Below, one piece after another: positions 4,510-53,515 of a stretch of 64,000 nt of DNA. The position numbers and the translations under genes were made by a program. Origin of the DNA: an uncultured Bacillaceae bacterium (GTDB taxonomy: Bacteria; Bacillota; Bacilli; Bacillales; DSM-1321); assembly GCA_963754185.1 (NCBI GenBank), contig CAVWEP010000002.1, positions 830,192 to 894,191 on the forward strand, read 5' to 3'. How positions within the stretch are numbered: position 1 is the stretch's first letter; each line of letters begins with the position of its first letter. The notes under the pieces are model-generated. The model did no database searches. It worked only from the letters and a program-made list of their open reading frames with translations, and was not told where the DNA came from.

Positions 4510-5304
4510 TTAACTTGCTAATATTTTAGCAAGTTTTTCAATTAGCCGATTTCTTTCTTTTAAACGATTTTTCGAGTGATACCACTCAATTAGGCTTAAT
4601 TCTTGTGAAATAGCATGCCACTTCATTCTCATCTCAAGACCGGCATCTAGCTTTGTACCATAGCGTTCAAGCCATTTCGCCCATTCCTCACGAGGAACAT
4701 ATGAGTATAAAAGCATACCCAAGTCAATTGCTGGATCAGCAATAACAGCTCCGTCCCAATCAATTAAAAATAGTTCATTCTCATCGGTTATGAGCCAATT
4801 ATTATGATGTACATCACAATGACATACAACAGTTTCATCACATTTTATTAATAAAAAATTCTCTTTCAAAAAAAGAAGTGCTTGATTGATTGTGGGGATT
4901 CTAACTAACTCGGTAGATAGTCCTGCATCCACTTGTGTAAATATACTTTCAGGTCTTAAAGGAGATTTACCAAGCCTTTTTAACATGCTAAGCAACGGTT
5001 CCGATTGATGAATTTTTTTTAGCATTTTTGCTACTCGATCCTCATTCATCTCAGATTGAAATAATTCTCTCCCTGGATGCCAATGCTGAGCGGTAATTAC
5101 GTCACCATTTTCCATACGTCTTGTCCACATTAATTTTGGGACAATTCCTTCTGCTGAGAGTACAGCAAGAAACGGAGATGAATTACGTTTTAGAAAAAGC
5201 CTTTGATCACCATTGACAGCAATAAAAGCCTCTCCTGTCGCACCTCCAGCAGGAACTATTTCCCACTCCTGACCTAATAAATCTTCCAACTGGTTCACCT
5301 TCAT
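4510..5304 (-). CDS. ytmP: Phosphotransferase, APH/choline-kinase-like
   Basis: PAGGATGEAF, CHCDVHHNNW and LIDWD motifs; fits synteny. Exact start uncertain. Confidence 0.9.
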   Translation of the reverse strand: MKVNQLEDLLGQEWEIVPAGGATGEAFIAVNGDQRLFLKRNSSPFLAVLSAEGIVPKLMWTRRMENGDVITAQHWHPGRELFQSEMNEDRVAKMLKKIHQSEPLLSMLKRLGKSPLRPESIFTQVDAGLSTELVRIPTINQALLFLKENFLLIKCDETVVCHCDVHHNNWLITDENELFLIDWDGAVIADPAIDLGMLLYSYVPREEWAKWLERYGTKLDAGLEMRMKWHAISQELSLIEWYHSKNRLKERNRLIEKLAKILAS

Positions 5305-8275: not shown

Positions 8276-9686
8276 TTATCTAGCCAATTCATAAATCGCC
8301 TGTGCATAAATCGCAGCGGCCTTTAACAGATCCTCAATCTCCATATATTCATCTTTTTGATGGGCAATATCTTCTCTGCCTGGGAATAGTGGTCCAAATG
8401 CAACCCCTTCCTTCAACGAACGAGCATATGTGCCACCACCGATTGACAGCAATTCTGCTTTTTCACCTGTTGCTTCCTCATACACTTTTTGTAAGGTTTG
8501 AATTAAGAAGCTGTCCTTATCAACATGGTGAGGTGCAGAATTGGAGAAAGACTCTAATTGTAGCTGTAACTTCGCTACATTCGCTGTTAATGTTTCTTTC
8601 CCCTGCTCCCAATCATATGTAACAGGGTAGCGCATCGTAAATCCAACGCTGCTATCTGCTGGTTTAGCATAACGAAGCTTACCAGCATTTAAAGTTAACT
8701 CACCTGTAATCTCATCTTGATACGCTACACCTAATTTATTCCCTCGTGAATCCCCAAATAAATAATCACGAATGAATGTAAAGTATGTAGTTGCATGAGA
8801 GTCTAAATCCAAATCGGCTAAAAATGAACCCAAATAAAGTCCAGCATTGACTCCATTATTCGGCTCCATTCCGTGGGCAGATACCCCTTCAAGCTCCAAA
8901 ATAACCATCGTATGTGAGATTTCCGCTTTTCCTGTTAGCGAATGTTTTTGTAAAAATTGCTCATACGCCTCCGTTACTTCCGCTGCTTTTTCTGTTTCCA
9001 CTTTTGCTACCGCGTAATCAGGTACCATATTCATTCGACGCCCTGAAGAAAATTCCACCACATTCACCGCTGCCTGCTCAACTTGATTCTGCAGGAGCTT
9101 GAACAATTGCAAAATCCCAAATTCCTTTTTCGGCATTAATAATAGGAAAATCAGCATCGGGAGCAAAGCCTACTGTCGGCATTTCCTCTACTTCAAAATA
9201 ATGATTCACACAACGCCAATTTGATTCCTCGTCGGTTCCAATAATCATCCGCACGCGTTTATTGAGGGAGAGGCCTAACTCTTTGATTACCTTCATTGCA
9301 TAATAAGCAGCCATTGTTGGACCTTTATCGTCAATGGCTCCACGTGCGAAGATTTTTCCATCACGGATTTCGGCACCATATGGGTCTGAACTCCAGCCAT
9401 CTCCTTCCGGTACAACGTCAACATGACATAAAATGCCAAGCAATTCTTCGCCTTCCCCCATCTCAATATGCCCAGCTACATGATCTACATTTTTCACCGT
9501 AAAACCATCTTTTTCCCCTAAATTTAGCATATACTCTAATGCTTCCTTGACTCCAACGCCAAATGGAGCGGTATCTGTTTGATTTTCCTCATCAAGCACA
9601 CTTTTAATTTTCAATAAACTTTGTGTATCGGCAAGTAAATCTTGTTTACGATTTTCTATTTCCAATTGCCAATTGATTTTATTCAA
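8276..9686 (-). CDS. pepV: Dipeptidase PepV (M20), frameshifted near 9080-9165
   Basis: CHVDVVP, RGAIDDKGP, GTDEES, GGGTYAR and AHQKDEY motifs, split over two frames. Confidence 0.92.
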
Positions 9687-25365: not shown

Positions 25366-26385
25366 TTAGCTTCTATAGCATTGAATCACTCTGTTATAAA
25401 TCGCTCTCGCTCTTGAAGTTTCATGGGTACCATGAATAATCGCGCGACCATCTTTAAATAACACCATTCGATAATCTTCGAAAGAACAAGAAAGTAAATA
25501 GGGATTGACCATTACATTTGTCACTACTCCGCTCACATCTTGTGCTAAGCGATCAAGCGAAATCGATATAGACGTGGCTGGACGGATTTGAATGGCGTCT
25601 CTCCCGCATAACACGTCAGCTTTGGTTTGGTTTTCAAATGCTAAGTGTGGAAATGTTGGATGCTCACCACATGTAGGACAATGTCTATTCTTCAATTTAG
25701 AAATATTAATTTCTGATTTTTCATCCTTCCAAATATCAAAAGATTGAATAATCGGTGAAAGCTCGTGTCCTGTTAAAAGCTTTAATGTATGTGTCACTTG
25801 ATAGGCCGTTACCATTTGAACAATCGGACTGATAACGCCGACTGTATCACAGGTTATACCATCCAAAGGCAAATGAGCCATTAAGCAATGTAGACAAGGT
25901 GTCTTTCCTGGAATAATTGAAAAAGTAAGTCCATAGCTTGCAACACATGCTCCAAACAAGAAAGGAACTCCATGCTTAACCGCTGCGTCGTTTACAATCA
26001 TTCTCGTTTCAAAATTATCCGTAGCATCTAAAATAACCGATTTTCCTTTTACAAGTCCTTCTATATTAGTGGCATTAATATCCATAATTAGACTATCAAT
26101 GGTAATTCCACTATTAATTTGCTGCAGACGATTTTTAGCAGCAATCGCTTTTGGAAGCTTGTTAATAGCATCTTCTTCCGTATAAAGTTGTTGCCTTTGT
26201 AAATTACTCCATTCCACGTAATCTCGATCGACAATCGTTATATTGCCAACTCCAGCTCTTGCAAGCATTTCAGAGCTTGCCGACCCAAGTGCTCCTGCTC
26301 CTATAATAAGAACGTGAGCATTTTTTAACGATTCTTGCTCACTCTTCCCTAAAAATAACTCTTGCTTGGCATAACGGTTAATCAA
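25366..26385 (-). CDS. thiF: ThiS adenylyltransferase
   Basis: [27 protein letters not shown] and CxxC pairs; last gene of the TPP-controlled operon. Confidence 0.92.
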
Positions 26386-27148
26386 GAGGTCACCATCCCC
26401 GATAATGGGCTGCTTGCTACACCATAGTTTTTCTCTTCAATTCTTCCTGCTTCAAATCCAAGGCGTCCTGCCTCAATTGCCAGCTTCATCGCAAGCGCCA
26501 TCTTCACAGGATCCTTCGCATTGGAAACAGCCGTATTAAGTAAAACACCGTCAGCCCCAAGTTCCATAGCATAGGCTGCATCCTTTGGAGAACCAATGCC
26601 CGCATCAATAATGATAGGAACTGATGATTGCTCAATAATAAATTGTAGATTTAACGGATTAAGAATTCCTTTCCCTGAACCTATTGGTGAAGCCCCAGGC
26701 ATGATGGCATGGACGCCAAGCTGTTCGAGACGTTTCGCTAATACAACATCATCAGACGTATACGGCAAAACAATAAATCCTTCCTCTAATAGCATTTCGG
26801 ATGCCTTTAACGTTTCCACCGGATCAGGCAAGAGTGATTTGTCACACCGATGACTTCTACTTTAATCATGTCGCATAAGCCAGAAGCTTTCGCTAGTTTT
26901 GCTATTCTAACTGCTTCCTCTGCCGTTTTTGCTCCAGCCGTATTAGGAAGAAGCGTATATTTTGATAAATCGAGTTGTTCAAGGAAGTTTGGTTGAGACT
27001 CCTCAAATATATTCATTCTTCTAACGGCAAACGTTAAGATTTCAGCTTCCGATACTTCCACTGCTTTTTTTTGAATCTCAAATGACGAATATTTTCCTGT
27101 TCCTAATAAAAGTCTTGAGTTAAATGTTTTGTTTGCAATTTTTAACAT
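26382..27148 (-). CDS. thiG: Thiazole synthase, frameshifted near 26820
   Basis: [24 protein letters not shown], and [15 protein letters not shown] motifs split over two frames. Confidence 0.93.
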
Positions 27149-27150
27149 GA

Positions 27151-27354
27151 TTATCCTCCTCCTACAAAATGAATAATTTCAATACGATCTTTGTCTGATA
27201 GAATCGTAGAATCATATTGTTCTTTATACGTAATTTCTTGATTTACTTCAACTACAACAATCCGATTTTCTAAGTTATAGTGACGAAGCAATTCTGAAAT
27301 CGACTTAATTTCCTCAGGTAATTCAATACTTTTTCCATTTAATATAATAGCCAT
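27151..27354 (-). CDS. thiS: Sulfur carrier ThiS
   Basis: 67 aa with C-terminal HFVGGG. Confidence 0.95.
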
Positions 27355-27366
27355 CCTTTTCCACCC

Positions 27367-28481
27367 CTAGACTAACTGCTTCTGTTTTCGGTCTATTTTA
27401 AAGGCTTCTATCCACTCGCTTCTCATTTCCTTCTGCAAAATAAAATCTCGGATCATTTGTCCTGTCGCAGGAGCAAGCAGAATGCCATTTCGATAATGCC
27501 CCGTTGCAAATAAAATCGATTCATCCTCAGGATGCTGCCCAATAAACGGTTTTCGATCAAATGTATCTGGACGGAGCCCTGCCCAAAAGGAACGGATCTT
27601 CATGTCACGAATCGCTGGTAACATCGTTTTTGCTTTCGCAATGACAGATTCTATCCCACCAATCGTTTAGTTTCACTCCAATCATTTTCTACCATCGTTG
27701 CTCCAATCACAAACGAGCCATCATTTCGCGGAACGATATAGCTCTGTTCATGATATAACGTGTGTGTAAGCGTAATGCTTTTCATCATAAACAGATACAC
27801 ATTCCCCTTTTACCGGAGTAAGAGCATGCTGTAAGCCGAGCTGTTGAAAAAATGGGGAGCTCCAAACTCCACTTGCAATCACCACATATTTCGCTTGAAA
27901 AAGACCCTTCGCTGTTTGAAGCATATAACTGCCATCCTTTTTTTGAATGCAGTAAACAGGTGTATATTCTAAAATATCGGCACCTAATCTTTGAGCACTT
28001 TTTCCAAACCCGCGACAAACGGAAATAGGTAACACATTCACATCATCCTCAATATAAGCGGCACCTAGTAATATGGGGTGTAACATGAGGTTCTACTTTT
28101 TCTTACTTCATCTGCCTCCATACCATTGAACAGTAGGTAACGAAAGGGTAGAACGTAATGCCTCTTTTTCTGCCTCGCTATAAGCGAATTGGAAAATGCC
28201 CTCTTTTCTCATCTCGATATCAATGCCACTTAGCTCTTTTATTTCTTCTTTAACCACTGAATAAGCTAATTGACTGCTTCTAGCAAAAGGATAAAAGACA
28301 TCCAGTTCAATCCCCTCTGAATGAGCACCAAGCATCCCAGCAGCTGCACTCGTTGATTTACCCTCCTAATTTTTGCTCCCTCAAAAATAGCCACATCGAT
28401 GTTTTCTTTTGCTAAATAATAAGCAATAGAGCAACCAATAATCCCACCGCCAATAACGGCTACTTCATAATGATGTTTCAC
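27367..28481 (-). CDS. thiO: Glycine oxidase ThiO, multiple frameshifts
   Basis: VIGGGIIG, AAGMLGAHSE, WAGLRP and GHYRNGILLAP motifs over at least four frames. Confidence 0.88.
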
Positions 28482-29087
28482 TGATTTCCCCTCGCCATTT
28501 CGTCAAAAATTGTAATGCTGATTCCCTTGGATCTTTGCTGAAAAAATCCCTGACATAACAGCTATTCCGTCTGCTCCTACTTCCTTTAAGAAGTTCCACT
28601 CTAGCTGGTGTAATACCCCCTATAGCGTATACAGGTATGCTTAGCTCTTTTTTCATTGCAGAGATTGTATCGATTCCATTTGGAGACAATCCTTTTTTAC
28701 TATTGGTTTCAAAGCAATGACCATATAACACATAATGTACTCCATCTCGTTCCGCTTGTATCGCTTCGTCTAAAACATGAACAGAACGCCCCACTCGCAG
28801 ATGTGGAAACCTACTCTTCACTTCTGATACAGGCAAAGTCCATGTGACGGTAAGTGAATGTTTGGAATACTCGTCTAAGCAACGCCATGTCCAAGCGATC
28901 ATTCAAGACGATTTTTTCCTTTTTCATCCCGCCTTTTTCTAAAAGCTGCAGTAAGAGAAGGATTTCTTTGGAGTTTTTGATTTTTCACGAATATGTACAT
29001 AATCAACAACATCTTTTATTTGAAGTAATTTTGACGGCTAACTCCGTCACGGAATGGGAATCATCTGTTCACTGCAAGAAGTTTCAT
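28465..29087 (-). CDS. tenI: Thiazole tautomerase TenI, multiple frameshifts
   Basis: MKLLAV start, HIREKSK, VGRSVH, YGHCFETNSKKG and PVYAIGGI motifs. Confidence 0.85.
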
Positions 29088-29223: not shown

Positions 29224-29249
29224 ATTCCTTTAACGAATACAAAAAACGC

Positions 29250-29348
29250 CGCACACTTCCCTACGCAGGTTCGAACCTGTTCAGGTTTTGAGGGTTTAAA
29301 AGTAGCTACTTTATTCTCAGCCCTTATCAAGGGATCCCCTAGTGAATA
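29250..29348 (-). promoter_or_regulatory. TPP riboswitch (thi-box), with terminator at ~29140-29165
   Basis: CTAGGGG...GGGCTGAGA...ACCC...CTGAACAGGTTCGAACCTGCGTAGGGAAG upstream of thiamine genes; terminator AAACCACTTTCCT...AGGAGAGTGGTTTTTT. Confidence 0.95.
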
Positions 29349-29427
29349 TATTTAATTTTTCAACATCCACATTCAAAATAACATGAAAATTTAGTAAATT
29401 CAAGTTTAATTTCCGAAAATTTTCATA

Positions 29428-30327
29428 TCATTCATGCTCTCTCTTTATACCATTCTCTATCTCATCTACGTCCCTTAAATAATCAAGGATTTCGTCCCGT
29501 ATCTCGTCCCTTTGTAAGGCAAAATCTAATGTTGCTTTAATAAATCCTATTTTATCCCCTATATCATAACGGGTTCCTTCAAAGTTATACGCTAACACAA
29601 CCTGCTGCTTATTTAACTCATTGATGGCATCTGTCAACTGAAGTTCATCACCTTGTCCAATAGGAATCCTTTCGAGAATATCAAAAATTTCTGGTCTTAA
29701 TACATAGCGCCCCATAATGGCATAGTTGGACGGTGCCTCCTCTTTACGTGGCTTTTCTACTAACGTATCAATATACAAAAGATTAGACTCAATAATGGAT
29801 CCTTTTGGCTTAATAATGCCATATTTATGGACTTCCTTTTCTGGAACGCTTTGAACCCCTACTACAGAACTGTTGTAATACTCGAAAACATTAATAATTT
29901 GCTTTAGACAAGGTGTATCTGACATCACAATGTCGTCTCCTAATAAAATCGCAAAGGGCTCATTGCCAATAAAACTTTTGGCACAAAGAATAGCATGTCC
30001 AAGCCCTTTCGGTTCCTTTTGGCGAACATAATAAATATTAACTAAGTTTGATATTTTTTGAACTTCCTCTAACATGACGAGCTGATTTTTCTTTAATAAC
30101 GCCTCCTCCAGTTCAAAGGATTTGTCAAAGTGATCCTCTATTGACCGTTTCCCTCTGCCGATAATAATCACGATTTCCTCTATTCCCGAAGCCACCGCTT
30201 CTTCCACAATATATTGAATCGTTGGTTTATCCACAATTGGTAGCATTTCCTTTGGTTGAGCTTTTGTTGCAGGCAAAAAGCGAGTTCCTAGGCCGGCTGC
30301 GGGTATGATTGCTTTTCGAATTTTCAT
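29428..30327 (-). CDS. galU: UTP--glucose-1-phosphate uridylyltransferase
   Basis: [40 protein letters not shown] and VEKP motifs. Confidence 0.96.
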
Positions 30328-30434
30328 ATGCGGCCTCCCTTCTTCATTCCTTATAATTATGCAGTGAGACAGGCAATGGTCACGTTAACCGCCTATCTTT
30401 GTACAAAAACTCCTGTACCCTAATTGGCAAGGAG

Positions 30435-31211
30435 CTATTTTCGGTCAATATGCAAAGGGCGATATATTTTTTTTATAAATTCCCTTATAACTTCAGGAAG
30501 GATTTTCCTTCCCCGTTCAACTAGTGTATTCACTATTTCCTTTTTTTCTTCCTTCGAAACCAGCCAATCATCAGGAATCATAGATAGAATTTCTTCTATA
30601 AAAAAAATGGGAACCTTCTGAATAAGTTCCAATTGTTCAGTAAAACATTTCTCGTCTTCAATAAAAGATGCCATTAATTGATGTGTAGCACTTTTTATTA
30701 ATTCGACTGGTAGCTTCTCTAAATCAGATTGAAGCCAATTGTACGTTCCAAATACCTCCGCATGATCAATGGACCACAAGTGATAGAAATTTTCATGTTC
30801 TTTTTGCAAAAGGATATTTTTACGCGTTCGATCTCCATTATAGAGCCAGTAATCAAAAACAATAATACTTGCTAATGACTGATGATTGATAATACGAGGA
30901 ATCGTAGAAACTTGATGACCATCTAGACAATCGGGGATGTACAACGAAGCAAATTGATACTGGGTAACGCTCATTTGGGCTAGTTCGGGTATTTGCGAAG
31001 TGAAGTCTGGAGGAATTTCAACAATTCTAGCGAATGGAATAGGAAGTCCTAGATAACGAGCCAAACAATAAGAAATCCATTCATTTGGTAAGGTTTTCTC
31101 AAAACCAGGCTGAAAATATTTCACGACATAGTCTCGTCCATCATTAAACGTAATCAAATGGGCATTTGATTTCCCTTCTAGCTTCTTACGATAAGCAATA
31201 GGTTGAATCAT
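30435..31211 (-). CDS. HipA-like (HipA_2, PI3/4-kinase fold) kinase
   Basis: YVVK (ATP Lys), LPNEW, LGLPIP, FDYWLYNGDRTRKNIL and IDH motifs. Overlaps the GT4 stop by 4 nt. Confidence 0.85.
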   Translation of the reverse strand: MIQPIAYRKKLEGKSNAHLITFNDGRDYVVKYFQPGFEKTLPNEWISYCLARYLGLPIPFARIVEIPPDFTSQIPELAQMSVTQYQFASLYIPDCLDGHQVSTIPRIINHQSLASIIVFDYWLYNGDRTRKNILLQKEHENFYHLWSIDHAEVFGTYNWLQSDLEKLPVELIKSATHQLMASFIEDEKCFTEQLELIQKVPIFFIEEILSMIPDDWLVSKEEKKEIVNTLVERGRKILPEVIREFIKKIYRPLHIDRK

Positions 31212-32323
31212 GATCCATTCACCTCATCATGATTTCCTTCATCCATTTGGATCAGTTCTTTCAACAAATCAACATATTGGGCCGCTACTACTTCAATGGA
31301 AAAATGGTCTTGAATATGCTCAATTGCTGCTTTCGACATCTGCTGATAGAGATTCGGATGATCTACTATACGATAAATTTGCTTCACTGCAGATTCCACA
31401 TTTTGTCCACGATAAAGCATTCCTGTCTCCCCTTGAACAACCAATTCTGTAACAGGCATCATGTTTGAAGCAACCACCGGTACGCCACAACTCATCGACT
31501 CAATAAACGTATTACCAAATGATTCTGATTTTGTGGTAGCAAGCGTGCATCCGCCCGATTGTCGAATTTTCGCATAGATATGTGGCATTTGCTGATAGGG
31601 AATGACTGGAAACCATTTAATGATATCGGTGAGTTTTTCCTCTTGCCATTTTGCTGCAAATTCCTCACGCTGTATACTTTGTGCTCCACCAATGACCCAA
31701 ATTTCAAGATCATCGCGCTCAGCTTTCATTTTTTTAGCTATATCTAGCAGCATTGGCCAGTTTTTACGTTTGTCCAATCTGCCAATCCAACCAATAATTT
31801 TTTTATCTTTCGGTAGTATGGGAACACTGTCGAAATCTATTTCCTCAGTCAATAAAGGCCGGAAAAAGGAGGTATCCACACCATTGTAGATGATGTTAAT
31901 GGGGTTTGCCTCTGTCAGAATGGAAACTAAACGTTTTTGATACTGCGAAGGAACAATAATCGATAACGGCTCAATCCCTTGAAATGATTTCAAATGAGGC
32001 TCGAGCTTTATAAGCTCTGGTGTACGCGCTTCTACAATAACAGGTCCTTGATAATTTGCTTTTCGAATCCATTTATAGGCAGCTCCAGTATCCACAACAA
32101 TAATGACATCATAGGCGTTATCTTTAATAATATTGACAATTTCTTTTTTATCCTTGGTTAAATAAACAGGCGCTACATCTTCCATAATATGAAGCCCGCC
32201 ATGGTCGGTCGTATACAGAAATTCTGTATAAATTCCATATTTTTTAAAATAGATTGCGCGATTTCGCCAGCCAGCATTTACTCCGCCAACTGTGAGCAAT
32301 CGCCATATTACAAGCACTTTCAT
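31208..32323 (-). CDS. Glycosyltransferase family 4 (GT-B)
   Basis: IYNGVD, WIGRLDKRKNW and ESFGNTFIESMSCGVPVV (EX7E) motifs. Confidence 0.92.
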   Translation of the reverse strand: MKVLVIWRLLTVGGVNAGWRNRAIYFKKYGIYTEFLYTTDHGGLHIMEDVAPVYLTKDKKEIVNIIKDNAYDVIIVVDTGAAYKWIRKANYQGPVIVEARTPELIKLEPHLKSFQGIEPLSIIVPSQYQKRLVSILTEANPINIIYNGVDTSFFRPLLTEEIDFDSVPILPKDKKIIGWIGRLDKRKNWPMLLDIAKKMKAERDDLEIWVIGGAQSIQREEFAAKWQEEKLTDIIKWFPVIPYQQMPHIYAKIRQSGGCTLATTKSESFGNTFIESMSCGVPVVASNMMPVTELVVQGETGMLYRGQNVESAVKQIYRIVDHPNLYQQMSKAAIEHIQDHFSIEVVAAQYVDLLKELIQMDEGNHDEVNGS

Positions 32324-32424
32324 TTGACTGCTCCTCTCTTCAAACTTGGAATCCCCCTTACTTCTTTTAATCTTTAGCTTGTCTACTCTCTAGCCATTGA
32401 ACTACTATTTTTTTATCTACATCC

Positions 32425-33537
32425 CTATCTACCTTTACGAGGGTTTCCACCATCTCCACGATTTTTGCCATCTCTTTTGTTTTTACCATTATCATTCTTT
32501 TTGTTGTTTCCTTGCTGTTTACCTTTTTCTTGATGTTTATCTTTTTCTTGATGTCTACCTTTTTCTTGTTGTTTATCTTTTTCTCGATGTCTACCTTTTT
32601 CTTGCTGTTTATCTTTTTCTCGATGTCTACCTTTTTCTTGTTGTTTATCTTTTTCTCGATGTCTACCTTTCCCATGATGTCCGCCAGCTCCATGCTGATT
32701 AGCATTTTCACGATTGTCCCAGTATTGATCAATTAATTGCATAACCGATTCTGGGTCTTCTCCCAGTGCAAGCATCGTTTTAACCCATTCTTCTTTAAAT
32801 ACTTTGTGCAGCAAGCCTTCTAGTAAAATCACATAGTTTGCCTCATCTTTTGTCGTCAGCAGCCTTTTGCTTAGCGTTTTCACTACATTGGTCTCTTTCT
32901 TTTCATTAATGAGTACATGATATACTTGACGAGATATTTCTTCCATGCGGATATAGTGCTGCCATTCTTGATACAGCTCTGGAGCCAATTCTTGTACATG
33001 GGATAAAAACATTTCTTTATACTCTTCACCTAAGGAGGTTAATAGCTTGTGTGGATAAGGATATACACGGTCACGCCAAACAGCCCTTGCCACATCAATT
33101 ACTTTTAGACTACCATCCGGCTGCAAATAAATTTGCCGCTTATGGTGGTCAATCCGGTCAAAGCCAACCTCCTTAAACGTAACTAACATCTGAATCAATT
33201 TATAGGAAAGTTCTTTTGTTAGCGGCTGTGATTGCAAGTATTCACGCACATCAACACCTTCAACAAATTCCATCGCAATATAGAGAGAGCCTTTCGCATA
33301 GACTTTCGGGAAGAGACTACTTTTTTGCCCTAGCGAAAGAGCATAATATTCTCGCTCACAATCTTCGGAATTACCAAATACCTTCACACATATATCATTA
33401 GTAAAAGAAAACACTGCCCCTTGTCTCCCTTTACCAATCATCGTTAGCGGGGATTTATTAACGACCTCTACATCTGCATTGATCATATTTTTAACTTGTA
33501 TCTTCTGTACACATTTGTTTAGATATTGAATATCCAT
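32425..33537 (-). CDS. Atypical Ser/Thr kinase (YrzF/RIO-like) with basic repeat tail
   Basis: IGKGRQGAVF G-loop, CVKVF, EREY, RIDHHKRQI catalytic loop and IDVA. AAAGGATGAGG RBS before ATG at 33537. Confidence 0.82.
   Translation of the reverse strand: MDIQYLNKCVQKIQVKNMINADVEVVNKSPLTMIGKGRQGAVFSFTNDICVKVFGNSEDCEREYYALSLGQKSSLFPKVYAKGSLYIAMEFVEGVDVREYLQSQPLTKELSYKLIQMLVTFKEVGFDRIDHHKRQIYLQPDGSLKVIDVARAVWRDRVYPYPHKLLTSLGEEYKEMFLSHVQELAPELYQEWQHYIRMEEISRQVYHVLINEKKETNVVKTLSKRLLTTKDEANYVILLEGLLHKVFKEEWVKTMLALGEDPESVMQLIDQYWDNRENANQHGAGGHHGKGRHREKDKQQEKGRHREKDKQQEKGRHREKDKQQEKGRHQEKDKHQEKGKQQGNNKKNDNGKNKRDGKNRGDGGNPRKGR
32509..32670 (-). repeat. Coding tandem repeat: 9 x 18-bp units alternating as a 36-bp higher-order unit
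   Basis: Encodes KGRHRE-KDKQQE x3, then KGRHQE-KDKHQE-KGKQQG. Confidence 0.95.
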
Positions 33538-33802
33538 ATACCTCATCCTTTCTTGTAATAGGTATCCATCTCTTTTAACTCTACTTCCAAAAACACCACC
33601 TCTTCCTATATTTGATTCAAGAATGCCTGAAAGTGTACATGCTATGGCATAGATAAATGGAATTTTTTTTATTTTAATGCACTTTTTTGCACTAAAAAAA
33701 GCAACCTTCATAGAAAGTTGCTTACTTGTCGCTCTTCTTTTTAAATTATTGGATTTTTGCTAGATATTCAGCGAGTTGGTCGAAAGTTCCGATAAAAGAT
33801 TT

Positions 33803-34471: not shown

Positions 34472-34659
34472 TTTACGTATGTACTCGCTTTCTATTAGTA
34501 ATAATGGCTTATTCTCGAAATTTTATCACAAAATAGATGCATTCTGCACTTGGGAGATAAAATCCTTTTTCAACCTAACTGCTTATAGTAATAAAAACTG
34601 AAAATCAACCATATAACACATAAGGGAAAGGTTAAATTTCAATAAAGGAGATGATTTTT

Positions 34660-35313
34660 ATGAAAAAACAGCTCTTAAACATAATGATATTATTTATGGC
34701 ATTGGCCTTATTCTTTTCTCCCCTAAATACTGAGGCAAAAGGAGAAAGGGATCAGCAAAATCCGTGTAGTAATCAAGCCTCCGTACAACTAAAAACAGCG
34801 TTACAAAAGCTTTGGATTGATCATACTATATGGACAAGAAGCTATATTGTAAGTGCTATATCGGGTCTAGAGGATCAAGAAAAGGTACTTGCAAGGTTAT
34901 TAAAAAATCAGGATGATATAGGAAATGCAATAAAGCCCTATTATGGGGATGCGGCTGGCAACAGGCTAGCTGAACTGTTAAGAGAGCATATCCTTATTGG
35001 AGGAAAAGTGGTAGATGCAGCAAAAAGCGGAAACCAGGATACTCTAAAAAAATATAACACGGAATGGTATAAAAACGCTGACGATATTGCTCTGTTTCTC
35101 AGCAAAGCCAATCCGAATTGGAGCAATGCTGAATTGAAAGACATGTTACACATGCATTTAAAACTAGTTACAGACCAAGTTGTAACGCGACTTGAAAAAG
35201 ATTGGGATGCTGAAATTTTAGCTTATGATGAAGGTGAAGATCATATGATTGAATTCGCAGACATACTAACAAAAGGGATTATAAAGCAATTCCCAAATAA
35301 GTTTCAGCAATAA
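34660..35313 (+). CDS. Secreted helical protein of unknown function with His-bearing repeats
   Basis: Signal peptide ending TEA; LWIDH, LREH and LHMH helices; KNQDDI/KNADDI repeat. Confidence 0.8.
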   Translation: MKKQLLNIMILFMALALFFSPLNTEAKGERDQQNPCSNQASVQLKTALQKLWIDHTIWTRSYIVSAISGLEDQEKVLARLLKNQDDIGNAIKPYYGDAAGNRLAELLREHILIGGKVVDAAKSGNQDTLKKYNTEWYKNADDIALFLSKANPNWSNAELKDMLHMHLKLVTDQVVTRLEKDWDAEILAYDEGEDHMIEFADILTKGIIKQFPNKFQQ

Positions 35314-36386: not shown

Positions 36387-38802
36387 TTAGTTCGCTACGA
36401 TATTCACCAGTTTGCCTGGTACAGCAATGACTTTACGCATTGTTTTGCCATCGATTTGTTCTTTAATGCTTTCTTCGCCCATTGCAATTTCTTGTAGTTG
36501 TTCTTTTGTTGTATCAGTTGGAACCATTAATTTTGTTTTCACTTTACCATTGATTTGGACAACGATTTCGATTTCATCATCGACAAGTTTTGCTTCGTCA
36601 AATGCTGGCCATGTTTCATACGTGATACTCTCAGTATGGCCTAAATGTGCCCATAAGTTCTTCAGCAATGTGTGGTGCAACTGGTGACAATAGTTTCACA
36701 AAGCCTTCAATATATTCTTTTGGAAGCTCTTCTGCTTTGTAGCAATCATTGATGAACACCATCAATTGTGAAATCGCTGTGTTAAACTTCAATTCCTCAT
36801 AGTTTTCCGTTACTTTTTTCACAGTTTGGTGATACACTTTCTCCAATTTACCACTATGATCTGAATCGACAAGCTTAGATGTTACTTGATCGTTATCATC
36901 AACAAGTAGACGCCATACGCGATCTAGGAAGCGACGTGCTCCGTCTAATCCATTTGTAGACCAAGCAATTGATGCGTCTAGTGGGCCCATGAACATTTCG
37001 TATAAGCGAAGTGTATCCGCACCATGGCTTTCCACGATATCATCTGGATTCACAACGTTTCCTTTTGATTTACTCATTTTTTCATTATTTTCACCAAGAA
37101 TCATCCCTTGGTTAAATAGGTTTTGGAATGGTTCTTTCGTTGGAACTACGCCGATATCATATAAGAATTTATGCCAGAAGCGTGCGTATAGCAAGTGAAG
37201 AACAGCATGCTCTGCTCCACCGATATAAATATCGACTGGCATCCATTCTTTTAATTTGTCAAAATCAGCAAGTGCTTCTTTATTATTCGGATCGATATAA
37301 CGTAAGAAGTACCAGCTGCTGCCTGCCCATTGTGGCATTGTGTTTGTTTCACGACGACCTTTACGTCCATTTTCATCGGTTACATTTACCCAATCCGTAA
37401 TATTCGCAAGTGGTGATTCACCTGTTCCAGATGGCTTAATATCTGTAGCTTTTGGTAAAAGTAATGGAAGCTCTTCTTCTTTTACTGCTTCAACAGAGCC
37501 ATCTTCCCAATGGATAATTGGAATTGGTTCCCCCCAGTAACGTTGACGACTAAATAACCAATCGCGTAGGCGGAAGGTTACTTTTTTCGTACCAATTCCT
37601 TTTTCTTCTAACCATTCGATCATCGTTTTAATTCCGTCTTCTTTATTTAAACCATTTAAGAAGTCTGAGTTTACATGCTCACCGTCTCCAGTGTACGCTT
37701 CTTTCGTTACATCACCGCCAGCCACAACTTCAATAATTGGTAAGTCAAATTTAACGGCAAATTCATAGTCACGCTCATCATGTGCTGGAACGGCCATAAT
37801 TGCTCCTGTTCCATAGCTAATTAACACATAGTCAGCAATCCAAATTGGCATTTTCGCTCCATTAACTGGGTTGATGGCATATGCCCCTGTGAAGACACCT
37901 GTTTTATCTTTGGCTAAATCCGTTCTTTCCAGGTCACTTTTATGTTTAACGACATCTAAGTAAGCGTCAACCGCTGCTTGTTGCTCAGGAGTTGTGATTT
38001 TTTCAACAAATGGATGTTCTGGTGCTAATACGGCATACGTTGCTCCGAATAATGTATCTGGACGAGTTGTAAATACCGTAAAGGTTTCATCATGTCCGTC
38101 GATACCGAATGTCACTTCCGCTCCTTCAGAACGTCCAATCCAATTGCGTTGCATGTCTTTAATATTTTCTGGCCAATCAACTGTTTCTAAATCATCAAGT
38201 AAACGGTCAGCATACGCTGTAATACGAAGCATCCATTGTTTCATTGGACGACGTTCAACTGGGTGTCCTCCACGCTCACTTAATCCGTCAATAACCTCTT
38301 CATTTGCAAGTACTGTCCCAAGTGCTGGACACCAGTTCACAGCCACTTCATCAATATAAGCAAGACCTTTTTCATATAGCTTTAAGAAAATCCATTGTGT
38401 CCATTTATAGTATTCTGGGTCTGTTGTATTAATTTCGCGATCCCAGTCATATGAGAAACCAAGTGATTTGATTTGGCGACGGAATGTATTAATATTATGT
38501 TCCGTGAATTCTGCTGGATCATTTCCGGTATCAATCGCATATTGTTCTGCAGGAAGACCGAATGCATCCCAACCAATTGGATGAAGTACATTATAGCCCT
38601 GCATTCGCTTCATACGTGCTAAAATATCACTTGCTGTATATCCTTCTGGATGACCTACATGCAGTCCTGCACCTGATGGATACGGGAACATATCAAGTGC
38701 ATAGAACTTACCCTTTCCACTTTCTTCACCTGTTTTAAACGTTTTATTTTCTTCCCAATATTGTTGCCATTTCGTTTCAATACGTTTATGATCAAAACTC
38801 AT
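36387..38802 (-). CDS. leuS: Leucine--tRNA ligase, frameshifted near 36650
   Basis: [19 protein letters not shown] and C-terminal VPGKLVNIV motifs; Leu T-box upstream. Confidence 0.98.
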
Positions 38803-38903
38803 TTTTAGCTTCCTCCTATTTCCTATATAAAGCCATAAAACCAACACAAGATAAGATCTTCACCCCATGTATGGAAAATAACGATTTATTTCAAATTTCA
38901 TAA

Positions 38904-39150
38904 TAAAAAACCCCTCATCCCAAATAGGGACGAGAGGATTATGTATATCTTCCCGCGGTACCACCCACATTGGCAACTTACATAACGTTGCCCAGCTCAG
39001 ACATCCGTAACGTGGACTAGCACGCCAGGTGTTACTTGATTTCACACCTGAAACTCAAAAGGCGAGTTCACAATCAATCCAGGTTGACTTGCACCATCCG
39101 TCAACTCTCTACACTGGCTCTAATTGCTACTACTCCTCATCATAGTCTTT
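38904..39150 (-). promoter_or_regulatory. T-box riboswitch, Leu (CUC specifier)
   Basis: T-box AATGTGGGTGGTACCGCG at 38954-38971; specifier GAA-CTC-GCC (CUC at 39064-39066); terminator at ~38904-38945. Confidence 0.95.
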
Positions 39151-39662
39151 ATAAAAGTATTTTAATCTACTTTATTCTAGTAAATTTTTTCAACAATTGC
39201 AATAGCTACTCGCAAAAACATTATAACCATGTTTTTGATTATATATGCATTTACATGGATTTTTGTGCTGGAGAATGGATGAATGTTGTTCAGCTTCTTC
39301 ATTGGCTATACAAGCCAGATTAGCTATGTACTCAGTATCATTATCGCTTTAATCGAAATAGTCCCTCCATCATCGAAAAAGTAAAGCGAGCGGTGGCAAA
39401 TATTTCGTAAAATTTAGGGTATCGTAACAATAAATTATAGTAAACAGCTTTGTTACCCAGCTTCATAAAAAATTCACTTTATACACTCCCCTAAATTAGT
39501 TATAATTAAAAATTGGATTTATTACATATAAAGTCATCTATTTTATGGATTGATTTAACTTCTATACCAAAAGGTAACGTGAACATGGCTAAACTTATTA
39601 GACTAAATATTAAGTTTGCTTGCTCTATTCCTTGTTAAAAAAAGAAAGAAGGACATTATTCT

Positions 39663-52002: not shown

Positions 52003-53196
52003 TTACGCTTGTGCTTTTAAAGCCTCTGCTTTATCTGTACGCTCCCAAGGAAGATCCACATCTGTACGGCCAAAATGTCCATAAGCAGCTGTTTGATTGT
52101 AGATAGGACGACGAAGATCAAGCATTTTGATAATTCCAGCTGGACGAAGATCAAAGTTATTGCGAATTAATTCAACTAATTTTTCTTCACTTACTTTACC
52201 TGTACCAAAAGTATCAACAGCAATCGATACTGGTTTTGCTACACCAATTGCATAAGCCAAGTTGAACTTCAGCTTTATCAGCAAGGCCAGCTGCTACGAT
52301 ATTTTTCGCTACATAACGAGCAGCATAAGCAGCTGAACGGTCTACTTTCGTTGGATCTTTACCAGAGAATGCACCGCCGCCATGACGAGCATAACCGCCG
52401 TACGTATCAACGATAATTTTACGTCCTGTAAGACCAGCATCCCCTTGAGGTCCGCCAATAACGAAACGGCCAGTTGGGTTAATGAAATATTTTGTTTCGC
52501 ATCTAATAATTCAGCAGGAACGACTGCATTAATAACATGTTCTTTAATATCTGCTTGAATTTGCTCAAGTGTTACTTCCGCATCATGCTGAGTAGAAATA
52601 ACAATTGTATCAACACGAACAGGTTTATTGTTTTCATCATATTCAACCGTTACTTGTGTTTTACCATCAGGACGTAGGTATGTAAGAGTTCCATTTTTAC
52701 GAACTTCTGTCAAACGACGAGCAAAGTTGGTGAGCTAATGAGATTGGAAGAGGCATAAGCTCTGCTGTTTCGTTACAAGCAAAACCAAACATTAACCCTT
52801 GGTCCCCTGCACCGATTGCTTCAATTTCTTCATCAGACATTGTTCCTTCACGTGCTTCAAATGCTTTGTTTACACCTTGTGCAATATCAGCTGATTGTTC
52901 ATTGAAAGAGCTTAGAACAGCACAAGTTTCGGAATCAAAACCATATTTCGCACGAGTGTAACCAATTTCTTTAATCGTTTCACGAACAATACTTGGAATA
53001 TCACATATGCAGAAGTTGTAATTTCTCCCGCTACTAGTACAAGACCTGTTGTTACACTTGTTTCACAAGCAACACGAGCATTCGGATCCTTTGCTAGAAA
53101 TGCATCAAAAATCGAATCTGAAATCTGATCACAAATTTTATCCGGATGACCTTCTGTTACAGATTCGGAAGTAAATAGACGGCGTTTCTTTAACAT
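52003..53196 (-). CDS. metK: S-adenosylmethionine synthetase, several frameshifts
   Basis: [34 protein letters not shown] and AAYGHFGR motifs; SAM riboswitch upstream. Confidence 0.97.
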
Positions 53197-53349: not shown

Positions 53350-53515
53350 CTCTTATCGTTCAAGGGTTCTTTACCTTGCTCAGGTTAGCACCAACACCAC
53401 AATTCCTTGAAAAAATGACTGGCTTTATTTTCGACCTTCATTTTCAATTCAAGTTCAAATATGGCAGGTTGCTGGGTTTCATCGGGCCTGTCCCTCCACC
53501 AACTCAGGATAAGAG
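53350..53515 (-). promoter_or_regulatory. SAM-I riboswitch with long P3; terminator at ~53300-53330
   Basis: CTCTTATC...GAG...GGAGGGACAGGCCCGATGAAACCCAGCAACC...GGTGCTAA...GATAAGAG. Confidence 0.95.

Follow-up and report, generated by a model that had tools for sequence, protein, structure and literature searches.

A kinase-glycosyltransferase-kinase gene cluster conserved in endospore-forming Bacillales: a candidate module for modification of the spore surface

Organization of the cluster

The window analysed in this study is a 64,000-nucleotide (nt) stretch of DNA from an uncultured soil Bacillaceae bacterium, and all coordinates given below are window positions. Between positions 33537 and 29428, on the minus strand, it carries four intact open reading frames (ORFs) arranged head to tail. 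They encode a kinase-like protein of 370 amino acids (aa) with a tail of basic 12-residue repeats (K1; 32425..33537), a GT4-type glycosyltransferase (31208..32323), an atypical kinase of the HipA_2 family (258 aa; 30435..31211) and GalU, a UTP-glucose-1-phosphate uridylyltransferase (29428..30327). The ATG of the HipA_2 gene overlaps the TGA of the GT4 gene as ATGA. These genes had been noticed in a preliminary description made from the sequence alone, which reported four intact, co-oriented genes for a kinase with a basic repeat tail, a GT4 enzyme, a HipA-like kinase overlapping it by 4 nt and a UDP-glucose pyrophosphorylase. All of these observations were borne out: the four ORFs lie on the minus strand, and their products were recognized by the TRF program (repeat tail), PF00534 (GT4), PF20613 together with the ATGA overlap (HipA_2) and TIGR01099 (GalU).

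All four proteins were found to be 100% identical in six independent metagenome contigs. This indicates that the genes are intact, despite the frameshifts that split housekeeping genes elsewhere in the window, namely thiG, thiO, tenI, leuS, metK and a pepV-like gene (26382-28902, 36387-38847, 52003-53196, 8276-9686). The split genes point to assembly indel errors rather than pseudogenes, since at least thiO, thiG and leuS are whole in contig L002, which is from the same organism; in contig L001, leuS is broken differently.

The cluster is bounded downstream by a thiamine pyrophosphate (TPP) riboswitch (29241..29350, minus strand; Rfam RF00059, 70.1 bits), which opens the unrelated tenI-thiOSGF operon, and upstream by the terminator of a MOSC/YiiM gene, identified in a terminator scan (33699..33723, minus strand). 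The longest possible ORF for K1 opens at 33711, inside this terminator (33723..33699), and K1 orthologues begin at a MD..YL sequence matching position 33537. K1 was therefore taken to be a protein of 370 aa starting at 33537, where the methionine codon is preceded by a Shine-Dalgarno sequence.

Conservation of the neighbourhood

The distribution of the cluster was examined by scanning a single genome for each GTDB species, which gave 80 loci; counts were obtained by tblastn and ORF clustering. In 77 of the 80 loci, which come from about a dozen Bacillales genera, the K1, GT4 and HipA_2 genes directly follow one another in the same orientation. One further locus is cut by a contig end, with the start of GT4 still visible, and the last two contain a solitary second copy of K1 without GT4 or HipA_2 (L019:8001-9101, L077:7965-9044). 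Both solitary copies keep the basic tail and the promoter-like element described below, and the same genomes hold a full cluster (L029, L011). Judging from these copies, K1 may have a function independent of the neighbouring enzymes. The median gap between GT4 and HipA_2 is -4 nt (78 loci). A recurrence in 77 of 80 related loci puts the arrangement far beyond chance, so the comparison of gene neighbourhoods that had been proposed in the preliminary description as a check gave a positive answer.

GalU lies directly downstream in 53 of the 80 loci and within 8 kb in 63. A gene for UDP-glucose 6-dehydrogenase (Ugd) abuts galU in 38 loci and is present anywhere in the locus in 47. These counts identify kinase-glycosyltransferase-kinase as the core of the cluster, with the UDP-sugar genes as frequent but separable companions. 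The chromosomal setting is stable, between thi and housekeeping genes, and shows no signs of mobile elements.

The K1 family is a small one, comprising only 194 clusters (50% identity, E <= 1e-3) among 1.84 billion representatives. Its named carriers are exclusively endospore-forming Bacillales, belonging to Neobacillus, Peribacillus, Schinkia, Mesobacillus, Niallia, Robertmurraya, Calidifontibacillus, Virgibacillus, Aneurinibacillus, Paenibacillus and Effusibacillus.

A paralogous module was found in Peribacillus acanthi, P. simplex and Mesobacillus jeotgali, in which tandem K1-like kinases of 386-435 aa stand beside GT4-like enzymes and an epimerase. In P. simplex this module lies near genes for a GalU 84% identical to that of the window, Ugd, phosphoglucomutase and a divergent HipA_2 protein (33% identical), and also near another GT4 and a single-domain K1-like kinase; the locus is rearranged and non-orthologous. 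The modules of these three species thus show the same families kept together through rearrangement. Several of the GT4-like proteins have low-complexity tails of their own (L087:8416-10014, L087:13369-15015, L065:5305-6522). The tails are N-terminal and K/E-rich in P. acanthi, as in an N-terminal KKEKKEKKEKKK stretch, and C-terminal in P. simplex, with either about 20 QL repeats followed by a K-rich segment or ETETEK/KSKSKS runs (ETEK/KSKS type) ending in KKKKKK. Matrix-like tails on enzymes seem to recur in these loci. In M. jeotgali (L089:4476-7196), a collagen-repeat protein of 216 aa and a PKD-domain protein of 680 aa are encoded approximately 2-4 kb from the module of GT4, tandem kinase and epimerase, and may be glycoprotein substrates of the exosporium type.

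Transcription units and promoters

The terminator scan and folding revealed neither a terminator nor a stable structure in the gap between K1 and GT4. Behind the HipA_2 gene lies a hairpin followed by five U residues (30403..30436, minus strand; -12.9 kcal/mol, z = -2.0), which is the probable intrinsic terminator of K1-GT4-HipA_2. At the equivalent site, the Neobacillus hairpin reaches -19.6 kcal/mol (z = -4.9) and is likewise followed by a U-run. GalU has a conserved promoter of its own (30353..30398, minus strand), consisting of a TAGGC box (30395-30391), GTGAC (30383-30379), a 17-nt spacer and CATAATTAT (30361-30353). These results predict two adjacent transcription units, K1-GT4-HipA_2 and galU, the latter being galU-ugd in most relatives. 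The four genes therefore do not make up a single operon: the hairpin after HipA_2 and the separate GalU promoter speak against it, as does the adjacency of GalU in only 53 of the 80 loci. The ATGA overlap suggests that GT4 and HipA_2 are translationally coupled.

Across genera, the GalU promoter conforms to the consensus aTAGGyTaCTAACGTGAC-N17-CATATAAAgGA. A strict version of this pattern was found in 33 of 64 loci, compared to 7% of shuffles. The AC and CATA elements are unchanged in all loci showing the motif, and the most distant loci (L085, L086) keep CATA with no TATAAT-like hexamer. An AC in the -35 region, combined with a -10 of the CATA type, marks sigma-K promoters, whereas ATA in the -35 region marks those of sigma-E (PMC3789822). 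The GalU promoter, with its AC-17 nt-CATA arrangement, is thus predicted to be of the sigma-K type.

K1 is preceded by a promoter-like element (33601..33643, minus strand), composed of AC (33636-33635), 17 nt and AATCAAATA (33617-33609). In relatives it follows the 45-nt consensus tGCCtTTACAtTTT-N10-TTGAATTaAcTATAgtAGG and is found ahead of K1, at a distance of 85-220 nt, in about 65 of the 80 loci. It occurs once in the window and nowhere else in 1.36 Mb of related loci; no other genuine site of the full or reduced element was found in this sequence set, and hence no regulon. The element has the layout of a sigma-K promoter (AC-17-CATAnnnTA) but with AAT[T/C] in place of CATA, that is, AC-17 nt-AAT[T/C]nnnTA. 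The tetramer thus carries two invariant substitutions relative to CATA, and reads CATT in the most distant orthologues. When the element was compared by eye with the consensus sequences for sigma-A, B, D, H, E, F, G, K and extracytoplasmic function (ECF) sigma factors, only the sigma-K layout fitted, with CATA unmatched. A structured leader or riboswitch, considered on account of GGCGGU/GCUGCC pairing in Neobacillus K1 leaders, was rejected: RNAalifold predicted zero pairs and there was no Rfam match.

The 8-mer AGACAAGC occurs in the K1 leaders of 17 loci (for example L016:7919 and L033:7926), and in Neobacillus-type loci it is placed 25-45 nt downstream of the K1 element. The copy in the window lies between K1 and GT4 (32377-32384, minus strand). 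Since the overall frequency of this 8-mer equals chance, its recurrence reflects orthologous conservation and is not proof of a SpoIIID site.

The encoded proteins

K1 matched no model in Pfam (E <= 0.01) or NCBIfam. A PDB sequence search found a local match of 70 residues to the Hanks kinase StkP, extending from the hinge to the DFG-equivalent (E = 4.5e-4). The AlphaFold2 model of K1 (pLDDT 80) comprises a kinase-like domain (approximately 33480..33058), a helical C-domain (33060..32725) and a basic disordered tail (32724..32428), all on the minus strand. Foldseek returned 370 PDB kinase matches at E <= 1e-3 for this model; the best target-normalised TM score, 0.66, was obtained with the archaeal RNA kinase Ark1 (172 aa). 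The Gly-rich loop GKGRQGAVF, Lys52, Glu63 and Asp130 (in RIDHHKRQ) are invariant in the alignment, and Asp148 (in KVIDV) is kept in at least 90% of the sequences, including paralogues of 28-39% identity. The Asn of the catalytic loop is replaced by Gln in orthologues and by His in most paralogues.

By its fold and its Lys/Glu/Asp/Asp set, K1 belongs to the protein-kinase-like superfamily; as modelled, it consists of a minimal protein-kinase-like domain with a helical domain C-terminal to it, and kinase activity is plausible. It does not qualify as a Hanks-type Ser/Thr kinase (PF00069), given the lack of a Pkinase profile match and the Gln in place of Asn. Thus, of the earlier designation of K1 as an atypical Ser/Thr kinase, the kinase-like fold is supported, whereas the Ser/Thr specificity is unproven. 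K1 also has no match to RIO1 (PF01163) and was not assigned to the RIO/Bud32-type minimal kinases; faint precomputed RIO1, ABC1 and Pkinase matches were seen on some tandem K1 paralogues only, and a few K1 homologues are labelled 'RIO2 family protein' by NCBI. Some Neobacillus K1 proteins (466-470 aa; L063:8001-9143, L073:8001-9143; P0002, P0004) possess an extra N-terminal copy of part of the kinase N-lobe, and complete tandem kinases are found among other relatives (P0126, P0129, the family of 386-435 aa).

The tail of K1 is encoded by a 36-nt tandem repeat (32516..32670, minus strand; TRF: 4.3 copies, 95% match), giving 12-aa GRHREKDKQQEK repeats. Its 96 residues include 20 Lys, 12 Arg and 8 His, and no Ser, Thr or Tyr at all, so the tail of the window protein is not a conserved O-phospho or O-glycosyl acceptor. 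A tail is present on all 120 K1 homologues listed; it is 35-172 residues long, hypervariable and unalignable, with a pooled composition of 19% Lys, 14% Arg, 11% Gly, 10% Asp and 9% Glu. A collagen-like nature of the tail was considered and discarded, the PF01391 match on P0096 being a GEK/GKH/GDK/DRH pseudo-repeat and not a collagen domain.

The GT4 protein is a retaining glycosyltransferase of the GT-B type, soluble and without a transmembrane segment. It matches Pfam Glycos_transf_1 (PF00534) with 91.6 bits (cutoff 26.4) and contains the EX7E motif ESFGNTFIE; its closest solved relatives are sucrose-phosphate synthase, BshA and TarM. HipA_2 matches PF20613 (89.7 bits, cutoff 27) and, with 35 bits, PI3_PI4_kinase. 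Lys31, the catalytic loop D127-R-T-R-K-N132 and Asp149 (the Asp of IDH) are invariant. The HipA_2 model (pLDDT 74) has a PI4K/Fam20/HipA-like fold, with TM scores of approximately 0.5 to actin-fragmin kinase, Fam20C, CtkA, PI4KIIalpha and HipT/HipA; the fold match to Fam20C is accompanied by 12-15% identity.

The bacterial spore kinases (BSKs) of B. subtilis, which are of the aminoglycoside phosphotransferase (APH) type, are members of Pfam clan CL0016. PF20613 is assigned to the same clan (bioRxiv 10.64898/2026.09.18.752743). Together with the protein-kinase fold of K1, this makes K1 and HipA_2 distant relatives within one superfamily. The cluster had been thought to combine two unrelated kinase folds, which has to be corrected: K1 is protein-kinase-like, HipA_2 is PI3/4K/HipA-like, and both fall in that superfamily.

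GalU scores 399.6 bits against TIGR01099 (equivalog cutoff 326.8) and 370 bits against B. subtilis YngB (7b1r). It is therefore a true GalU, and the earlier suggestion that the cluster brings its own supply of UDP-glucose holds. No UDP-glucose dehydrogenase is encoded in the 64-kb window, and the Pfam search matched the CotH domain in none of the four proteins. The cluster contains no flippase, polyprenyl-phosphate transferase, transmembrane segment or export gene. The absence of the first three means that the acceptor must be accessible from the cytoplasm.

Surroundings of the cluster in the window

Upstream of K1, the neighbouring genes encode the MOSC protein, a small secreted protein, an RDD protein and LeuS, the last with a T-box. 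The 220-aa protein encoded between the MOSC and RDD genes (34651-35313, plus strand) has a signal-peptide-like N-terminus; it gave no Pfam or NCBIfam matches and is not kept beside the cluster in other genomes. The T-box leader before leuS is located at 38923-39152 (minus strand), and an S-adenosylmethionine (SAM) riboswitch precedes metK (53350-53515, minus strand). The TPP, T-box and SAM elements all exceed the Rfam gathering thresholds and were the sole Rfam matches found.

The gene order of the window corresponds to that of the 'yt' region of B. subtilis. Judging from its position, a 264-aa ORF at 4510-5304 (minus strand) probably encodes a YtmP-like, APH-type kinase-like protein that appears unrelated to the cluster. 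Lying at the ytmP position, this ORF would be the third kinase-superfamily gene of the window.

Proposed function and alternatives

The reading that we favour, with confidence that is evenly balanced, is that the cluster encodes a module for modifying an outer layer of the spore, produced in the mother cell by some of the soil Bacillaceae and their relatives. It is suggested by the restriction of the genes to endospore formers, the sigma-K-type motif of GalU, the soluble enzymes unaccompanied by export functions, the charged tails and a list of parts resembling that of a B. subtilis spore locus. The galU unit would supply UDP-glucose and, together with ugd, also UDP-glucuronate. The soluble GT4 would then move a sugar to an acceptor that can be reached from the mother-cell cytoplasm, which might be a protein of the coat, crust or exosporium or a nascent glycan. 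HipA_2 and K1 could subsequently phosphorylate the sugar, as WaaP and WaaY do on the heptose of lipopolysaccharide (LPS) and Fam20B and POMK do on xylose and mannose, or else phosphorylate the acceptor, as CotH does on CotG and CotB. That GT4 and HipA_2 are coupled speaks for their acting one after the other on a single substrate. The K1 tail more likely docks the enzyme in a charged spore-surface matrix or forms part of that matrix.

A more specific scheme can be drawn up, which we regard as rather doubtful. K1 and HipA_2 would both be glycan kinases that, together with GT4, build a phosphorylated glucose/glucuronate polymer, a phosphoglycan resembling teichoic acid, on the developing spore from the mother-cell cytoplasm, without a lipid carrier or an exporter. 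K1 would represent a new protein-kinase-like family, and its tail would bind the anionic product electrostatically and so tune the charge of the spore surface between species.

Several observations weigh against a role at the spore. The link to sporulation is proposed by analogy and from taxonomy and the promoter motifs, and a search of RNA-seq runs found none that contains the window or the Schinkia locus. The CATA typical of sigma-E and sigma-K promoters is missing ahead of K1, and the GalU promoter can alternatively be read as a weak sigma-A site, GTGACC-16-CATAAT, which agrees at 9 of 12 positions. Two further sporulation-related signals were recognized by their consensus only: the TAGG[C/T] box just upstream of the GalU -35 region fits the TRGGY core of the GerE consensus, and AGACAAGC fits the SpoIIID consensus WWRRACARNY. 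The Gln in place of the catalytic-loop Asn means that K1 might be a pseudokinase. Finally, neither the 80 retained loci nor the listed homologues include a B. subtilis or B. cereus record, and consequently no data from model organisms can be transferred from that set.

Four other explanations were considered, all of which we think unlikely. One is a cytoplasmic small-molecule pathway, in which GT4 glucosylates a metabolite in the manner of BshA, MshA, sucrose-phosphate synthase, TreT or the pterin glucosyltransferases, and the kinases add phosphate to the glycoside or to its precursor. Such a pathway might yield a solute, a cofactor of the thiol-like kind or a natural product. Among solved or curated proteins, the nearest relatives of GT4 do use small acceptors (sucrose-phosphate synthase 6kih, 55.8 bits; BshA; TreT; BH4 glucosyltransferase), but these matches score well under the family cutoffs. 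The solubility of all four proteins and the lack of export genes agree with such a pathway. The basic disordered tail of K1, at 35-172 residues, and the tailed paralogous GT4s are atypical of metabolic enzymes, however, and the small-molecule pathway is also at odds with the sigma-K type of the GalU promoter and with two related loci that encode a neighbouring collagen-repeat protein or tailed GT4s.

Modification of the vegetative or stationary-phase envelope or matrix, that is, glucosylation of teichoic acid, a surface protein or the biofilm matrix, unrelated to sporulation, has a similarly small chance of being correct. It has precedents in the GT4 enzymes TarM and SdgA, which work on the cytoplasmic face and attach sugars to wall teichoic acid and serine-rich adhesins, and the K1 promoter is not of the canonical mother-cell type. 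GalU paralogues may moreover be condition-specific, as in the case of YngB (PMC7961091). An envelope role is hard to reconcile with the absence of a flippase, a lipid-carrier enzyme and a signal peptide, and with a GalU promoter that keeps AC-17-CATA rather than TTGACA/TATAAT and that, in L085 and L086, retains CATA with no TATAAT-like hexamer. The carriers, besides, are endospore formers only.

The kinases might also act as regulators, with K1, HipA_2 or both phosphorylating GT4, each other or another protein to switch glycosylation, whether or not sporulation is involved. GT4 and HipA_2, being translationally coupled, may form a stoichiometric complex; members of the HipA family phosphorylate Ser and Thr residues of proteins, and by sequence K1 is nearest to protein kinases (StkP, E = 4.5e-4). 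Two constitutively linked kinases without a sensor domain, a receiver or a phosphatase would nevertheless make an odd switch, and solitary K1 paralogues exist without GT4 (L019, L077). The fold, in addition, does not predict the class of substrate: WaaP, Fam20B and POMK are protein-kinase-like and phosphorylate glycans. We therefore judge this proposal improbable as well.

A HipA-type toxin or an anti-phage defence element, as could be read from the HipA_2 domain name and from PADLOC matches of HipA_2 to the candidate family PDC-M66A (46.6 bits) and of K1 to PD-T4-6 (22.5 bits), deserves hardly any credence, as these matches are weak and reflect generic kinase similarity, the 258-aa protein is a kinase domain only, without the HipA N-terminal domain and without a HipB, HipS or helix-turn-helix (HTH) partner, and its gene is coupled to a glycosyltransferase in 78 loci in a stable chromosomal context.

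Comparison with known systems

The chemistry of the spore surface controls how spores adhere and disperse and how hydrophobic and resistant they are; most of what is understood about it comes from B. subtilis and the B. cereus group. If the spore-layer module proposed here is real, other soil bacilli solve the same problem, which is to combine kinases with a glycosyltransferase and a dedicated source of UDP-sugars, using different kinase-superfamily members. K1 is a compact kinase family with a clear genomic partner, which makes its substrate class, protein or sugar, directly testable. No description of the cluster was found in the literature searched.

Among systems with related parts, the HipA and HipT toxin kinases share with HipA_2 the Pfam clan, the catalytic loop and a fold match with a TM score of approximately 0.5. 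They differ from it in having an antitoxin partner of the HipBA kind and an N-terminal subdomain, and the context of HipA_2 is a sugar-metabolism cluster. Fam20B and POMK are eukaryotic glycan kinases that phosphorylate a sugar between glycosyltransferase steps. HipA_2 resembles them at the level of fold only, through Fam20C, a paralogue of Fam20B, and there is no secretory pathway here. CotH is an atypical, Fam20-like spore-coat kinase whose substrates CotG and CotB are basic, repetitive and fast-evolving. As in that system, an atypical kinase occurs together with basic, repetitive, low-complexity sequence; here, however, the repeats are fused to the K1 kinase itself and, in the window, are devoid of Ser, Thr and Tyr.

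The best mechanistic analogy for a glycosyltransferase with two kinases is provided by WaaG, WaaP and WaaY of E. coli. WaaG is a GT4 enzyme that uses UDP-glucose, and WaaP and WaaY, protein-kinase-like sugar kinases of the Kdo/WaaP family, phosphorylate sugars of the same LPS inner core. K1, by contrast, has no match to PF06293, and the LPS substrate is lipid-linked and belongs to a Gram-negative membrane, so that both the organisms and the compartment differ.

The closest parallel is the spore locus of B. subtilis, cotS-cotSA-cotI(ytaA)-ytxO/ytcA-ytcB-ytcC/ytdA, in which the kinase genes cotS and cotI cluster with the GT4 genes cotSA and ytcC and with ytdA and ytcA-B (PMC2860764). The two systems have in common kinases, a GT4 and a GalU paralogue, as the preliminary description had already pointed out, and the resemblance goes further than it claimed, since most relatives also carry Ugd, the counterpart of ytcA (PMC2860764). 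As in B. subtilis, the proteins are soluble, the genes are clustered yet distributed over several transcription units, and they occur in spore formers only. The placement of a GT4 beside kinases is also shared, the PF00534 protein adjoining both kinases in 77 of the 80 loci. The GalU paralogue gene ytdA is sigma-K dependent and linked to a spore polysaccharide (PMC7961091), and galU has a sigma-K-type motif here. In contrast to the CotS/APH kinases of B. subtilis (COG2334), the kinases of this cluster are K1, which has no Pfam model, and the PF20613 protein HipA_2, neither of which belongs to the BSK family. The cluster differs further in the basic repeat tail of K1, the translational coupling of GT4 to a kinase and the lack of an epimerase in the window, and its location in the spore is a prediction. 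What is new, then, is a putative spore-type locus of kinases, glycosyltransferase and nucleotide-sugar enzyme assembled from different kinase families, on a design principle that is already known; its value is that of a well-defined candidate system and not of a new principle.

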